This document shows positions 34,775-61,280 of a DNA stretch of 64,000 nucleotides, in pieces. Each line of letters starts with the position of its first letter. Position 1 is the first letter of the stretch. The notes under the pieces were generated by a model that saw only the letters and a program-made list of their open reading frames with translations, had not been told where the DNA came from and searched no databases. The DNA is from a virus, in IMG/VR virus record IMGVR_UViG_3300028025_002044, positions 12,450-76,449 of that record; one strand, 5' to 3'. The position numbers and the translations under genes are program-made.

Positions 34775-37700
34775 TTAATACTTTATCCTATAGGGGATTT
34801 GGTTTGCGTTTAGCTTTTGAAGCAGGTCAGTGATTTCGGCAGAGCTCTTGGTTTCGCTTAGTTTAGCCATATCAATCGATATGGCATCTTCATCGTTGTC
34901 CTGAGACTCGGCCAAGCTGGGGTAGTCAATGGCTTTACGGCTATCATCCAACTCTACTGACTGCATAAACGAGTACCCCATTTTGGTGAGCTTGTCGCTG
35001 TGATAAATCTTCCTGTTAGTTAGTTTGTTAGCAAAGGCAAGTAGTCCGGTGGCTAGGTGACGGCGTTGGTAAGGTTCGTTGGTGTAGATACCGTCAATGT
35101 ACATTTCATTTGCTAGACCGTCGGCCATAGGGTCGCCAATCTTAGTGCCAAATGTGGCTACAGCGCCGGCTGACGGATTTGCTGGGTCATAAGCATCTAT
35201 CCATATGTATGTATCTAGCGCCTGCGGGTCGTAGTCACTTTCCTTCAAAGAAACTTTGGCAGATAGTTTATATGGACGGCCGTACCTGTCTTTGTATGAC
35301 GCAGTTATTTTGGTGGTACTCTCTACAACCGTAGGAGTCTCGCGCTCTGTTGTAGTAGCACCGTCGAAGTCTATGTCTAGATTTTCGGTAGCCTTTTCCA
35401 TTATATTATCTTCACGCATGGCAGGCACCGAGAACCAGGAATCGTAGTGCTGGCGTCTAATAGATTTTAGGTTCTTTACCCTATTTGAATTAGAACCAAA
35501 CTGTTTTTCGGCTTCGGCAATCATGTCTGCATATGACTTCAACTCGGCTTCTTGATAGTCCTGCAGCGGAATACCGTAAGGGCCTGAAGTAAAGTCATAT
35601 GCTCGCTCTTTGTCTAGGTCTAGGTTCGGGTCAGCCGGGTCGAAAGGCTCGCCGCCAAATTTCATTAGCATAGGTGCAGCACTGTCAGGGCTGTCTGATT
35701 CAGTGGCAGCGTCTGCAAATCGCTTAGCGTTTCGGTCTACCTTAACATCCGTCATTCTAACTGGACGCTCTAGATATAGCCCATCTAGGCCCTTTACGCG
35801 GCTTAACGCAGTGTAAAGCTGGCCTGTAGCAAATGCACCATCTCCTAAATCAACCTTTAGATTGCTAATGGTTTTGCCTTGAAGCTTGTGGATAGTAGCT
35901 GCCCAGGCGAGCATCAAAGGAATCTGCTCATAGGTTGCTTCAGTAAATGGAGTCAGTTTATTGGTGACCTGGTTGCTAATGCTGTCTACTTGCTGACTGG
36001 CATCGTAGCCAACTTTATCCCACATGCTAGGGTAGACGTCATAAACGTTGTCTCCAACTCTAACCTTGACGTGGTCCTCTTCGAGAGCTACCACTTTTCC
36101 GATGGTTCCGTTTACCCATCTGCGAGCGGTCTTCTGGCCCTGACCAGACTCCTGATCTACGCTGTCTTTAGAAGAGCTAGGGGTGTCATTCCTGGTAAAC
36201 ATAACCTGAGCCCCAACCTTAAGGAAGAGCTTTTCCGGAGCAGGAAGCATGTCAAATGCTGGCTGTCCGGCACCACCAAACTCTCCGGTATATGTCTGAG
36301 ATTTGACGTTTCCTAGCTTGTCCATCTCCTCTTGGTTAATTTCGTCGGCTAGAGCGTTAGTTGTAACGGCGTAGATTAGGTCATTAACCGATTGAGCCAC
36401 TGGACGCATGCCAGCTTGATTGATGAAATCTAAGTCTTCCTGAGTAAATCTGCCTACTCGGATGTTGTTTAGGACCTTCTTAAATTCAGGGTCTGATTGA
36501 CGGAACACTTCGCTAAGTTCATAGACTTCTAGAGGCTGGTCAACCCAAGCTCTGGCGTCAAAGAAGAACATGCTCCTGTAGTTCTTCTCCATGTAGTCCT
36601 TGAGCTGAACGTCGCGCTTACCTACGAATGGAGACAGCTGGTATACGTCACCAAAACCAACAAACTGCACACCACCGAATGGTACGAATGGCTTGCCTTT
36701 TACATTCCTCAAAATTCTGTCCATAGCGTCTAGTAGGTCCGCTGAAACCATGGATATTTCGTCTACAACTAGGGTGTCTAGAGCCGCTAGGGCAGCCCTA
36801 ATTTTAGCCTTCTTTTTCGCATTTCCAATAATTAGCTGGCTTGCAGGAGTCTCGCCGTACACAATACCAGGCTTAAGTCCAAACAGAGAGTGGATGGTCG
36901 TGCCGCCAACATTTTCGGCTGCAGTTCCAGTGAATGACACTACAGCAATAATTTTTTCAGTAAAGTCACGGAAGAATTTAAGCAAGAATGATTTACCGGT
37001 ACCGGCTTTACCGGTAATAAATACAGGGCTCTTAGTGCTTTCTAGGTGGTTGTATAGCCACTGTTGCTCCGCAGACAGGTCGCCTTCTACAGTCGCCCGC
37101 TGTTCTTTATTTTTAACTGCAGGAATTTGGATAGGCGAGCCGTCTAAGTTATTCTTAGGTACATAGTTCTCTAACTTAGACTTATCAAATCCTTCTGGAA
37201 TGTCTATGCCTGACACAGGCTCGCCGTTGGCAATTCTCTTATCTAGAAGTGCCCCTAGAAGATCTTTCTTTACGGCCTCGACTAAGTTAGCGTCTATGAG
37301 CGGAAGCACACTCCAGAGTTCTCTAGCACGCTGGTCTGAAACCACACCTGACTCTTGAAGAATGTCCTGAACTGTTCTTAGGTCGGCAGTAGTTGGAGGG
37401 TTTACAGTAACCTGAGTCTCTATAGAAGGAGAAGTGTTCTCCTCCCCATTCTCGTACTTCATAAACATTGGAGTGGTTTTTGGCTGGTCTCGTAGGTAGT
37501 CCAAGAACTGGTCTACGGTCATGTTGCCGACGTTTTCAGGGACAGGTCGCTGCTGGGTGACAGGAGCTTCCTGTATAGGAGCGTCCGATCTTTTTCTAGG
37601 GGCGGCCATTTTGTCAGCTTTTTTGCCGTCAATTTTTTTAGCTCGTAGGCTGTCAAACTTAATTAAGTATTCTGCTAAGTCTTTAGTTCCAGACTTGGTT

Positions 37701-59078: not shown

Positions 59079-61280
59079 TTATTCTTTCTCTTGCTTTGGC
59101 AGTAAGTCGGCGTCTTTGCTATCGTACAGGTTAATAGCTAGGTCTGATGCTCTGGTGAATGGGTCTTCGCCCTCGGTAACGCCCCTCTTCCACGCAGCGC
59201 GGAATACAGGGAGTGCTTCGTAACCTAGGCCAGCATACTCAGTCAACGCGTAGATAGCGTCTTCAGGAGTTGCGTATGTTTCTGGAGATTCAATTCTGAC
59301 AGTAAGTAGGCTTTCGGCGTAGACAGAGTCGAGGCCGGTGTTTCCAGACGCAGTTACGCTACTCTTAGGGTGTGAGGCAGGTAGCAGGTCGTTGTCGGTG
59401 GTGTACTTAGGGTTCTTAGGGCTACCTGACTTAACTAGGTGTAGGAAAGCGTTAACGCGAGCCATGGACCACGAAGCACGGTTCTGGTCTGGACGGTGTG
59501 AAGTCGAGAACGCACCTGCACCTCTGCGGTAAACGGCCTTAAGCTTTGATAGGGAAACCTTTTTGCTGGCAGAGTCAACGCTGTCGTTGTGTTCCTTGAC
59601 CTTGTTGCGAAGAGAAGTCTCCACGGCTTTCGAGAAAGTAATCTTCTTTGAGCCAGACGCTGAGCCCTTCTTGTTTTTGTCTGAGCCCTTGATTTGGTCT
59701 TTCTTAGGAGCTGGCTTTGAGCCTGCGGTTGCAGAAAGAGCTGCAGCTTCGTCTGCTGGTACGCAGTTAGGAACCATCTTGCCGTTCTTCTCTTTCATGC
59801 CAACCTGGACGTAGCCATCCCAGCAAGGACCGTCCGAAGCAGCAGTAACTGCCTCTTCCTTTTCTACGTCTTCAGTGATTGGACCGCCGGCTGCCCAAGC
59901 GTTGCAGGTACGGCTAGCGGCGCACTTGAAGTCTAGGGCGGTGCAGTAACCAAGCTCAGCCTGGTCGATTGCATCCCATGCGCTCTGCTCGCCAGAACCA
60001 CCCTCGGCAATGCCGGTCTCGATGCAGTCTAGGGTCTTTGGACGGCGATCAAAGAATACGCAGTTGCCACAAATGCTTTTGCTTGCCTCAACTGGAGTAA
60101 TCTTCCAGCGGTCTGCCTTCTCCTGCCAAAACTCAGTGTTTGCCTCGTCAGGGTTTAGTGGGCCGTAGCCAACGTTGTCAATTGCGTTCTGACGGTTCTC
60201 GATGTTGAGAACAATGTCTTGAGTTGCAGGCGGGCACTTGCCCCCGTAGTCTGCGTCAGCGGTAATGCTTTCGCTCTGTAGGGTTACAGGTCCCTTACCC
60301 TTTTTAATCTTAGACATGTCGAGCACTTCGGCTGGAGCCCCTGCTCCGCCTGAAAACTCTCCAGGCAAATACTCGTGGTCTCCAGGGGTCTTGCCCTTTG
60401 GTGCCTTAGATGGGTCTACTGAGCCTTCTGGAAGCACTGCAAAACGGCAGTAACCCTCCGGGTCAACCTTAAACGCAACAACGGCGCACTCTTGGCCTCC
60501 ACGGAAGAGAACGCAGTTGCCACACTTAACGCCCATCTCGGCGTAAGGGTTGTCTTCTGGTTCGTGATAGTCAGCCCAGATGCCAGTCTGGTCTTCGTCA
60601 AACTTGCCGTACTTGTCGGCAATCTCGATTAGTGCCTCGGCTAGGTCCTGCTCTTCTGGGACTAGGTGTCCAGCAGCAAGCAAAGAGGTACGGATTGATT
60701 CAGGGGTAGGCTGAAGTTCTAGCAGTGAGTCCGAGTTATCGTTGTCAACTACTTCTAAAAGAACTTCAGCCTTAGATTTTCCCATATCAAGGTTCATAGT
60801 TTGAATCTGCATCGAGTCTGCGCCAATCGTAGTACCGATCTTCCAGCTCCACTTAGAGTGAGCGTCGATACGGCCTGCTGCCCAGTCTGCGATGCCCTGC
60901 ATATTGATTGCACTGGCAATGTTGAAGATGTCCTCAACGCAGTTCTTAAGAACTAGGTTCGCCTCGTAGAGATTTGCTGCCATCTCCATTGGGTCGCCTG
61001 CCGCTGGCTTTGAGTCCAAGCAAGCAAGCATAAGGAACTGGTCCAAGCTGTGGGGGGCGTCGAAGCCGATGATACGAATGTACTCTGCAATGCGGTCTTC
61101 TTCTCCGCTCCAGTCTTCGTAAATCTCGCCAAAGAAGTCGTGGAACTGAGTAAACTCTGGTCCCTTGACGTTCCAGTGGTATCCGTGCGCCATGTACTGC
61201 GCAACAACAGTAGTGCCGAGGAATTTGGCTAGCCAGTTAGCTAAGCCTTCCTTGCTCAGGTCGTACGATTTTTCATTCAT
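59079..61280 (-). CDS. modular head-associated protein: Dps/ferritin-like domain + Cys-rich (HiPIP-like) modules + further small head modules
   Basis: HGYHWNVKG-x-x-F-x-x-FH...DRIAE Dps signature; two CGNC-x-x-F...GYC modules; PCWDGYVQVGMK...VPNCVP; KAVYRRGAGA...ARVNAFL...DLLP. Confidence 0.85.
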   Translation of the reverse strand: MNEKSYDLSKEGLANWLAKFLGTTVVAQYMAHGYHWNVKGPEFTQFHDFFGEIYEDWSGEEDRIAEYIRIIGFDAPHSLDQFLMLACLDSKPAAGDPMEMAANLYEANLVLKNCVEDIFNIASAINMQGIADWAAGRIDAHSKWSWKIGTTIGADSMQIQTMNLDMGKSKAEVLLEVVDNDNSDSLLELQPTPESIRTSLLAAGHLVPEEQDLAEALIEIADKYGKFDEDQTGIWADYHEPEDNPYAEMGVKCGNCVLFRGGQECAVVAFKVDPEGYCRFAVLPEGSVDPSKAPKGKTPGDHEYLPGEFSGGAGAPAEVLDMSKIKKGKGPVTLQSESITADADYGGKCPPATQDIVLNIENRQNAIDNVGYGPLNPDEANTEFWQEKADRWKITPVEASKSICGNCVFFDRRPKTLDCIETGIAEGGSGEQSAWDAIDQAELGYCTALDFKCAASRTCNAWAAGGPITEDVEKEEAVTAASDGPCWDGYVQVGMKEKNGKMVPNCVPADEAAALSATAGSKPAPKKDQIKGSDKNKKGSASGSKKITFSKAVETSLRNKVKEHNDSVDSASKKVSLSKLKAVYRRGAGAFSTSHRPDQNRASWSMARVNAFLHLVKSGSPKNPKYTTDNDLLPASHPKSSVTASGNTGLDSVYAESLLTVRIESPETYATPEDAIYALTEYAGLGYEALPVFRAAWKRGVTEGEDPFTRASDLAINLYDSKDADLLPKQEKE

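Follow-up and report, generated by a model that had tools for sequence, protein, structure and literature searches.

Between the portal and prohead protease genes of the phage deposited as IMG/VR virus record IMGVR_UViG_3300028025_002044 lie two open reading frames (ORFs) that encode giant proteins of 3115 and 4715 amino acids (aa). We propose that these giants are effector polyproteins, which would be made late, loaded into the capsid, cut into separate enzymes and injected together with the DNA. The window analysed here is a stretch of 64,000 nucleotides, positions 12,450 to 76,449 of the record, and the block of interest spans 34775 to 61280 of the window. Judging from the sequence, we hold this reading to be probable, if only just. 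Its injection part is strengthened by synteny in hundreds of relatives, by the presence of part of the giants' N-terminal module in the protease/scaffold protein, and by the fusion of prohead proteases into homologous giants. Proteins of this kind are already published as the polyvalent class; the separator motifs and the address module described below appear to be undescribed.

Domain content of the two giants

The genes of the block from portal to major capsid protein are all on the minus strand, in the order portal, 733-aa protein, 3115-aa giant, 805-bp cassette, 4715-aa giant, 1551-aa protease/scaffold fusion and major capsid protein. The original prediction, which had placed ORFs of 733, 3115 and 4715 aa between portal and protease, is borne out for all three at the coordinates listed here and below, as it is for the ArdC-N, MPTase, ADP-ribosyltransferase (ART), two exonuclease and two superfamily 1 (SF1) helicase domains, each of which has Pfam or PHROG matches. 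The first giant consists of an N-terminal extension, the address module, about 800 aa without assigned function, a DEDDh exonuclease, a UvrD-like helicase, a coiled coil and a terminal ArdC-N plus MPTase unit:

49728-59075, minus strand: first giant polyvalent protein, 3115 aa (Pfam and PHROG domains)
54321-54881, minus strand: DEDDh (RNase_T-type) 3'-5' exonuclease, residues 1399-1585 (Pfam RNase_T at 1.1e-17)
51867-53942, minus strand: UvrD-like SF1 helicase, Pfam UvrD at residues 1732-2400 (also phrog_1967 at 8.8e-49)
50631-51002, minus strand: ArdC-N single-stranded-DNA-binding domain, residues 2692-2815 (PF08401 at 1e-17)
50139-50471, minus strand: MPTase zincin, residues 2869-2979 (PF18818 at 4.7e-28), HELTH at residue 2901

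The DxE, NxxFD and HxxxxD motifs of the exonuclease are visible in the translation, and the helicase carries GSGKT and DEAQD. ArdC-N is followed by an MPTase zincin with its HExxH motif, as in ArdC-type proteins, and the pair, which also matches phrog_7245 at 3.5e-55, is a predicted ArdC-type anti-restriction unit. Seven orthologs (P0002-P0008) are 88-97% identical over residues 2685-3115, the region searched. An ESM Atlas search with residues 556-1352 gave no usable match.

In the second giant the address module is followed by about 1,700 aa of small domains, a second exonuclease, two HEYGH zincins, the ART, a ParB/Srx-like segment, a PIF1/Dda helicase and a GNAT-like module:

34775-48922, minus strand: second giant polyvalent protein, 4715 aa (Pfam, PHROG, reading of the translation)
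42344-42925, minus strand: second DEDDh exonuclease, residues 2000-2193 (Pfam RNase_T at 2.1e-7)
40073-41485, minus strand: two HEYGH zincin modules, residues ~2480-2636 and 2760-2950, HEYGH at residues 2532 and 2863
39113-39595, minus strand: ART domain, residues 3110-3270 (PF03496 at 2.1e-8)
38513-38749, minus strand: ParB/Srx-like segment with a DGNHR motif, read from the sequence, no Pfam match
35690-37078, minus strand: PIF1/Dda-like SF1 helicase, Pfam PIF1 at residues 3949-4162 (2.2e-24)
34943-35656, minus strand: GNAT-like C-terminal module with a QRRHLATG motif (Pfam E=0.039, sub-threshold)

The helicase, which has a GTGKS motif, extends to residue 4411 by its match to phrog_325 (4.7e-74). 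The two HEYGH modules are weakly similar to each other and have no Pfam match. A GNAT domain had also been predicted; its own Pfam match does not reach threshold, and the assignment is supported indirectly by homology to tandem modules of a relative (G003, below) that match Acetyltransf_1 (PF00583) at 5e-8. The AlphaFold2 (AF2) model of the module has a predicted local distance difference test (pLDDT) score of 58, a fold search gave no significant match and the PDB profile match to NatA is only at E=0.46; we regard the module as probably GNAT-like. Six orthologs of the second giant (P0229-P0234) are 55-61% identical to it. An ESM Atlas search with its residues 840-1720 gave no usable match, and about 60% of the length of the giants is without Pfam match.

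We also observed a helical module of ~70 aa (LTKxxxxxxIxxLxxxELxWRxxNG) that recurs at residues ~480-560, 1860-1935 and 3860-3935 of the second giant and ~860-930 of the first. BLAST backs one such pair (residues 438-532 of the second giant against 818-929 of the first). This repeat may serve to bind DNA or protein.

The ART has the motifs LYHG / SSTS / GEREV, with STS and ExE present and a His at the position of the Arg of the R-S-E clade. Since this His replaces the NAD-binding Arg, the domain may have an altered specificity or activity. Kavagutti et al. (2019, PMC6802176) reported VIP2-like ARTs from 24 freshwater phages and suggested a 'Trojan horse' role for them, and the ART could by this precedent be a toxin against eukaryotic grazers of infected cells rather than a host-takeover enzyme, the more so as metagenomes from 16 studies (subsurface, freshwater, lake) contain the DNA of the window. 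We consider this very improbable: here the ART is one bead of a 4715-aa chain that also holds helicases, nucleases and a ParB-like domain, it comes without a signal peptide or an adjacent translocation (B) component, only some relatives have it, and the precedent of T4 Alt fits the gene context better.

Enzymes such as helicases and exonucleases belong to everyday DNA metabolism, and the giants might thus serve recombination, repair or anti-defence late in the cytoplasm of the producing cell, their place in the head operon being a matter of timing. This seems distinctly unlikely to us. As the original prediction had noted, these enzymes are encoded far from the replication module, which we found complete elsewhere on the contig, and ArdC-N and ART are domains characteristic of proteins that travel with transferred DNA.

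A private motif punctuates both giants

The core [LF]-M-x-[FY], usually preceded by P-[QM], occurs at five sites in the first giant and at five to six in the second:

57402-57419, minus strand: site 1 of the 3115-aa giant, PPFMRF, residues 553-558 (motif scan), conserved in 8 of 8 orthologs
55011-55028, minus strand: site 2, PQLMAF, residues 1350-1355, 44 aa before the exonuclease
54030-54047, minus strand: site 3, PQFMAF, residues 1677-1682, between exonuclease and helicase
51588-51605, minus strand: site 4, PQLMSF, residues 2491-2496, after the helicase
51129-51146, minus strand: site 5, LMLMAF, residues 2644-2649, before ArdC-N
48110-48127, minus strand: LQLMAF of the 4715-aa giant, residues 266-271, conserved in 7 of 7 orthologs
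40997-41014, minus strand: PMLMRM, between the HEYGH zincins, not conserved
39695-39712, minus strand: FQFMNF, residues 3071-3076, 34 aa before the ART
38450-38467, minus strand: PMFMQF, residues 3486-3491, after the ParB-like segment
37454-37471, minus strand: PMFMKY, residues 3818-3823, before PIF1
35657-35674, minus strand: PMLMKF, residues 4417-4422, 6 aa after the helicase and right before the EPFDPxDP of the GNAT-like module

In a six-frame translation of the whole 76-kb contig the strict form P-[QMP]-[LFM]-M-x-[FYM] has 8 matches, all of them (8/8) in the two giants, while shuffles give 0.014 on average. The sites, 11/11 of which fall outside domain envelopes, stand before and after the exonuclease, after the UvrD-like helicase, before ArdC-N, between the zincins, before the ART, after the ParB-like segment, and before and directly after PIF1. 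Over its first ~2,000 aa, the second giant has small domains with Pro/Glu-rich linkers in place of the motif.

Among the orthologs (7 of the first giant, 6 of the second) five sites per giant are kept while their flanks drift. PMLMRM is the exception, the orthologs having an LGF-type stretch at this place (LGFASSG in P0229). The codons vary synonymously from one motif instance to the next, which indicates that selection acts on the peptide and rules out that the motif arose by gene conversion or as a repeat at the DNA level. Two further explanations were discarded: the motif is not a piece of a duplicated domain, as it flanks unrelated domains and a relative's giant (G001, below) lacks internal repeats at E<=1e-3, nor is it a beta-clamp-binding motif of the QLxLF type, which does not fit in register and is contradicted by the unrelated motifs of relatives at orthologous sites.

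Relatives keep the layout and use motifs of their own

Portal relatives in IMG/VR number at least 596 at ~70-80% identity, and most loci that reach far enough show the portal, a protein of 170-750 aa and then an ORF above 2,000 aa, mostly above 2,500 aa. That the position between portal and protease is kept across hundreds of contigs again argues against cytoplasmic enzymes of the producing cell. With DSL-LC01, a metagenomic Actinomycetia phage, the major capsid protein shares 66% identity, and with Microbacterium phages of 186-195 kb (Pumpernickel and A3Wally among them) ~55%. In DSL-LC01 and Pumpernickel, too, the portal gene and the protease/scaffold, which is either split or fused, enclose a giant ORF (3289 and 2235 aa). 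The five-phage comparisons set this phage beside four relatives whose sequences were retrieved in full; the portal-to-capsid blocks of the four hold the following proteins:

G001: 373 / 4801 / 1570 aa
G002: 375 / 3341 / 1779 / 1584 aa
G003: 389 / 3239 / 6023 / 1506 aa
G004: 389 / 3542 / 6148 / 1509 aa

Some 8,500 aa of cargo and the lack of a recognisable MuF domain had been taken to be unusual. No MuF domain was detected here either (PF04233 was not matched at E<=0.01 with whole proteins or at E<=1 with N-terminal pieces; a remote relationship could have gone unseen, as no profile-profile comparison with Pfam was made), but both features turn out to be normal for the clade, in which giants reach 6148 aa. 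The domain content varies between relatives, as the original prediction had suggested checking by synteny: ArdC-N/MPTase is constant and closes the first or sole giant in 5/5 phages, while the ART, PIF1 and the exonuclease/UvrD pair are variable. This phage, G003 and G004 have the exonuclease plus UvrD pair in common, the ART occurs in this phage and G002, and PIF1 and the HEYGH zincins are confined to this phage's lineage. The exonuclease of the second giant is 52% identical to a domain of the second giants of G003 and G004, and segments homologous to the ParB/Srx-like segment occur in the giants of G001-G004. In further relatives, DnaG-type primases or sigma-70 region 4 are found as well.

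A word-index search with the ArdC-N/MPTase end retrieved 84 giants of 1,714-5,432 aa. In some of them (P0071, P0080-84) ArdC-N, MPTase and UvrD stand in one chain with an S78 prohead protease. In a clade different from this phage's (L120-L183) the post-portal giants have 2,900-3,570 aa; in its member L178 (160-kb IMG/VR contig, 7749-28804) a 3567-aa giant beginning with S78 comes next after the portal. Giants of the L178 type combine S78, UvrD, sigma-70 region 4, ArdC-N, MPTase and WYL, with separators [RK]LSSG[RK] (15 sites in L178), and 3-5 of these sites recur in a second giant of 2,200-2,750 aa downstream.

As a separate observation, giants P0009-P0012 and P0022-P0025 have a DnaG-type primase/Toprim beside ArdC-N/MPTase. 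They recall TraC1 and Sog, primases that plasmids transfer with DNA.

De novo searches showed that each of the fetched relatives has its own motif, almost confined to its giants. In G001 it is G-[FY]-x-Q-x-x-G (GFxQxPG type), with 24/28 matches in 126 kb falling within the giants, and G002 shares it; G003 uses P-S-Q-N-R-E (16/18 matches in 114 kb within the giants) and G004 G-P-S-P-K-x-E. Candidate separators in further relatives are PILKKA, PEIDKM, DRVVTP, P[ST][VI][DN]RMA, RFSSG, SLSSG, G[FL]ASRG and RLSSG. Aligned with each other, the giants of G003 and G004 are 62% and 44% identical, and at ~9 places of this alignment PSQNRE stands opposite PSPK[EQK]E. Likewise, in the column of site 1350 of the first giant the aligned relatives show their own motifs, and each of the tandem GNAT-like modules opens with a conserved EPFDPxDP right after a motif. 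Such concerted change at many independent sites points to one co-evolving reader of the motif. We suggest that these private separators, evolving in concert and apparently undescribed, are most likely cutting sites; our literature search found no description of separator motifs.

An N-terminal module is partly shared with the protease/scaffold protein

By BLAST and then jackhmmer, one copy of a ~140-aa module was found near the start of every giant, at residues ~10-160 or 175-330. Its consensus, Φ-[TVI]-A-x-G ... GGNS..R.ARA..QRRDR.GRFAEMGGG, includes a basic helix and leads into a small beta-barrel. The copies in this phage, and the partial copy in the protease/scaffold fusion, are:

58167-58562, minus strand: address module of the 3115-aa giant, residues 172-303 (jackhmmer 2e-45, alignment), opening at an LVAFG site and containing GQFAEMGGG
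48428-48892, minus strand: address module of the 4715-aa giant, residues 11-165, with an ITAGL site, then GRFAEMGRG and a small beta-barrel
30066-34721, minus strand: protease/scaffold fusion, 1551 aa (weak Peptidase_S78 match, strong head-protease PHROGs)
33540-33719, minus strand: partial address module of the protease/scaffold (jackhmmer, alignment)

The first 45 aa of the module (site, basic helix, GRFAxxG) recur at residues 352-394 of the protease/scaffold, and a partial module is also present in Pumpernickel gp84 and in the protease/scaffold homologue of DSL-LC01. Because the module sits at the N-terminal end of the giants and part of it is common to a protein that is necessarily inside the procapsid, we read it as a candidate capsid address tag. 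Again, the N-terminal module that the giants have in common with the protease/scaffold protein, together with prohead proteases fused into homologous giants, speaks against enzymes that stay in the cytoplasm of the producing cell.

A profile of the module run against 1.84 billion proteins matched 625 clusters; among the matches listed it is nearly always single, lies at residues ~5-160 or 157-330 and occurs mostly in proteins of 2,000-7,004 aa. In the AF2 model of the copy from the second giant the mean pLDDT is 76, and above 90 in the barrel. Foldseek gave no match at E<=0.001, and MuF or another known fold was rejected as an identity for the module, the PDB profile search reaching only E=0.013, to a baseplate protein. 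The same N-terminal module is carried by P0156 (7004 aa), P0223 (5763 aa) and the second giant of G004 (L101, 6148 aa). To our knowledge, module-bearing proteins of 6,000-7,000 aa are among the largest phage ORFs.

A second motif marks the protease/scaffold and capsid proteins

The head proteins are punctuated by another motif, [ILVM][TV][AS][ASC][GAS] (LTAAG, LVASG), with nine sites in the protease/scaffold and four in the N-terminal extension of the capsid protein:

31779-32129, minus strand: S78 domain of the protease/scaffold (weak Pfam match)
27901-29931, minus strand: major capsid protein, 676 aa (phrog_777)

The capsid extension is ~336 aa long and has its four LTAAG-type sites at residues 191, 228, 326 and 336, one of them at the start of the HK97-like domain. 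The motif is conserved in all five phages and is rare in the other ORFs of the contig; a motif scan of the portal found one LTAAA-type site near residue 37. Variants of the motif precede the address module, and apart from these and a conserved site at residue 53 of the 3115-aa protein it is absent from the giants. It is a natural candidate for the site of the S78 prohead protease, in which case a candidate mature capsid protein would start near residue 340.

As the private motif is found only in the giants, a zincin within the giants, where MPTase is universal, is the simplest candidate for the cutter, and we consider the giants' own MPTase to be most likely the cutting enzyme. The S78 prohead protease comes as the second candidate. 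Where a giant includes S78 itself, its separators are of the ΦSSG or GFASRG kind, similar both to the scaffold motif and to GFxQxPG, and S78 also stays a candidate because the ortholog P0229 has LGFASSG in place of PMLMRM.

Proposed course of events and its weighing

The following course of events is proposed. The giants would be made late, alongside the head proteins, and the address module would bring each of them into the procapsid beside the protease/scaffold. Cutting would take place at the separators between domains, inside the head or after ejection. With approximate borders, since the cut point inside the motif is not fixed, the 3115-aa protein would yield pieces 1-556, 557-1353, 1354-1680 (exonuclease), 1681-2494 (helicase), 2495-2647 and 2648-3115 (ArdC-N/MPTase), and the 4715-aa protein pieces 1-269, 270-2640, 2641-3074, 3075-3489 (ART and ParB-like), 3490-3821, 3822-4420 (PIF1) and 4421-4715 (GNAT-like). 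The pieces would enter with the DNA, shield the ends of the incoming DNA and process them, and modify proteins of the host before phage expression starts, an action that we infer from what ArdC, T4 Alt and P1 Dar are known to do.

One extension of this scheme is plausible, although we would stop short of calling it probable. Each lineage may have a private protease-substrate code, in which a probable internal zincin has co-evolved with 10-25 separators over ~8,000-10,000 aa. By such a code, only the enzyme of a given phage might free its injected effectors, and the code might have been rewritten repeatedly and in concert among phages with portals 70-85% identical.

Several observations weigh against capsid-loaded polyproteins that are cut. 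The N4 virion RNA polymerase, a 3,500-aa protein, is packaged and injected uncut. In the motif scan [LF]M.[FY] is absent from the protease/scaffold, the capsid protein, the portal and the 733-aa protein; as it is missing from protease/scaffold and capsid, there is no internal positive control that ties it to known processing, and the giants do not share the motif common to scaffold and capsid precursors by which prohead-protease substrates are recognised. MPTase is 72-76% and S78 70-87% identical between phages with quite different motifs (76% and 87% between G003 and G004), so that no clear co-variation with the motif is apparent for either protease. In some relatives, among them the cultured Pumpernickel with its gp82, our scan brought out no clear motif. 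The barrel of the address module has a generic SH3/Tudor/KOW-like fold (Z ~5, VIA-align). Finally, the literature search found no paper on the giants of this clade, nor on the biology of Pumpernickel, A3Wally or Atuin.

The same data could be accommodated if the giants were packaged and injected whole and the motifs were docking or linker peptides, through which a phage-specific partner would fold, compact or anchor the chain. The motifs are short, many of them contain proline and their flanks are rich in disorder-promoting residues, all of which suits binding as well as cleavage; an SH3/Tudor-like barrel in each giant and the small conserved ORFs beside the giants are candidate partners, and the lack of clear co-variation of either protease with the motif also fits. 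Yet the two address modules of this phage are only ~26% identical while both giants use one motif, the separators of S78-fused giants resemble the motif of scaffold and capsid propeptide, which points to proteolysis, and P0229 has an S78-type LGFASSG where this phage has PMLMRM. We think docking unlikely and retain late-made, capsid-loaded and cut polyproteins as our preferred reading.

Comparison with known systems

For polyvalent proteins, Iyer, Burroughs, Anand, de Souza and Aravind (2017, J Bacteriol, PMC5512222) predicted packaging, injection and self-processing through their zincins. They are, like the giants, multi-domain chains (ArdC-N, MPTase, SF1/SF2 helicases, ART, GNAT, ParB-like, nucleases) encoded near portal and head genes, and the giants likewise have several unrelated catalytic or DNA-binding domains per chain and genes beside those of the portal and head. 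That paper (PMC5512222) gives no cleavage or linker motif, and the word 'linker' is absent from it. New here, compared with the polyvalent proteins of that study, are the lineage-private, concerted separators, the common N-terminal module of the giants that recurs in part in the protease/scaffold, and two giants per genome totalling 7,800-9,700 aa.

The Dar enzymes of P1 (DarB with 2255 aa, DdrB, DarA, Hdf) are large anti-restriction enzymes with helicase, methylase, ParB and MPTase domains, loaded into the head via an N-terminal signal and helper head proteins and injected with the DNA, and DdrB is proteolytically processed. They differ in that P1 is a myovirus and has them as separate genes at another locus, with no punctuated polyprotein known; the similarity is only in domain families. 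T4 Alt and other internal proteins, and the ejection proteins of phiKZ and SPN3US, are targeted N-terminally, cut by the prohead protease and ejected, and Alt is itself an ART. Their cleavage motifs, L/I-x-E in T4 and S/A/G-x-E in phiKZ, serve for all substrates and are family-wide, whereas the motif of the giants differs from that of scaffold and capsid and between close relatives. The N4 virion RNA polymerase is likewise a giant with an MPTase zincin domain that is encapsidated and injected, but it has a single main function, and no RNA polymerase domain was detected in the giants. MuF-toxin fusions (SPP1 gp7 / Mu F) also place effector domains on a protein encoded just after the portal; the giants differ from them in having no detectable MuF and the ~140-aa module at the N-terminal position.

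Neighbouring genes

The rest of the block, from the portal to the cassette between the giants, comprises:

61291-63036, minus strand: portal protein, 581 aa (phrog_776 at 1.1e-108), the upstream limit of the cargo block
59079-61280, minus strand: 733-aa post-portal protein (Pfam: ferritin/Dps at residues 22-153, DUF5824 at residues 544-631)
60822-61247, minus strand: Dps/ferritin-like domain of the 733-aa protein (Pfam)
59388-59651, minus strand: DUF5824-like C-terminal domain of the 733-aa protein (Pfam)
48922-49713, minus strand: intergenic cassette between the giants, with a hairpin, a promoter-like site and three small ORFs
49688-49713, minus strand: terminator-like hairpin at the start of the cassette
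49501-49671, minus strand: very acidic 56-aa ORF (length as listed), after the giant that ends in ArdC/MPTase
49200-49472, minus strand: 90-aa ORF, paralogue of the 92-aa ORF
48922-49200, minus strand: 92-aa ORF, paralogue of the 90-aa ORF, leading into the 4715-aa gene

The 733-aa protein also has Cys-rich inserts. Its Dps and DUF5824 halves are kept after the portal throughout the clade, as proteins of 170-750 aa that are at times split. A Dps-like protein is an odd find within a head module and might protect or compact the packaged DNA.

The terminator-like hairpin and the promoter-like site upstream of the 90- and 92-aa ORFs suggest that the second giant may be a transcription unit of its own. 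The acidic ORF, with conserved counterparts in G001, G003 and G004, has an NPDxYxPEDxEYW motif, its conserved part beginning at an internal Met; it might act as a chaperone, inhibit a zincin or mimic DNA. The 90- and 92-aa ORFs have an AREELK.R.G.DP core in common. The gaps of G003 and G004 likewise hold small ORFs, of 52-125 aa, for which BLAST found no match to the 90/92-aa ORFs, a shared helical motif being seen by eye only.

The 76,449-bp record has no terminal repeat and is thus probably a fragment. Beyond the capsid gene follow a phrog_779 protein, the major tail protein, an adaptor, the tape measure and minor tail proteins. The replication module, apart from the giants, includes an SNF2-type helicase (503-2311) and DNA polymerase I (2849-4681), with primase and exonuclease genes further along the contig. 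Near the replication genes lies a glycosyltransferase (phrog_13126, 1e-106; contig bases 6966-8048, L102, plus strand), which could be a sign that DNA or the cell wall is modified with sugars. No near-identical DNA was found in cultured phages, Rfam found no RNA family in the window, and no RNA data set was among the listed sequencing runs that contain its DNA.

Significance

Of all phage weapons, polyvalent proteins are believed to reach the host first, and their loading, cutting and cut sites have so far been predictions. This clade, which is abundant in freshwater and groundwater metagenomes and in which 25-36 kb of a genome of ~115-130 kb is the norm for predicted injected cargo, provides exactly placed candidate cleavage sites, natural variants in specificity and a putative address module, and thereby opens the processing hypothesis to direct test. 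If true, the private codes would represent orthogonal, fast-evolving pairs of protease and site, a concerted co-evolution of substrate and enzyme, and a new layer of phage polyprotein biology.

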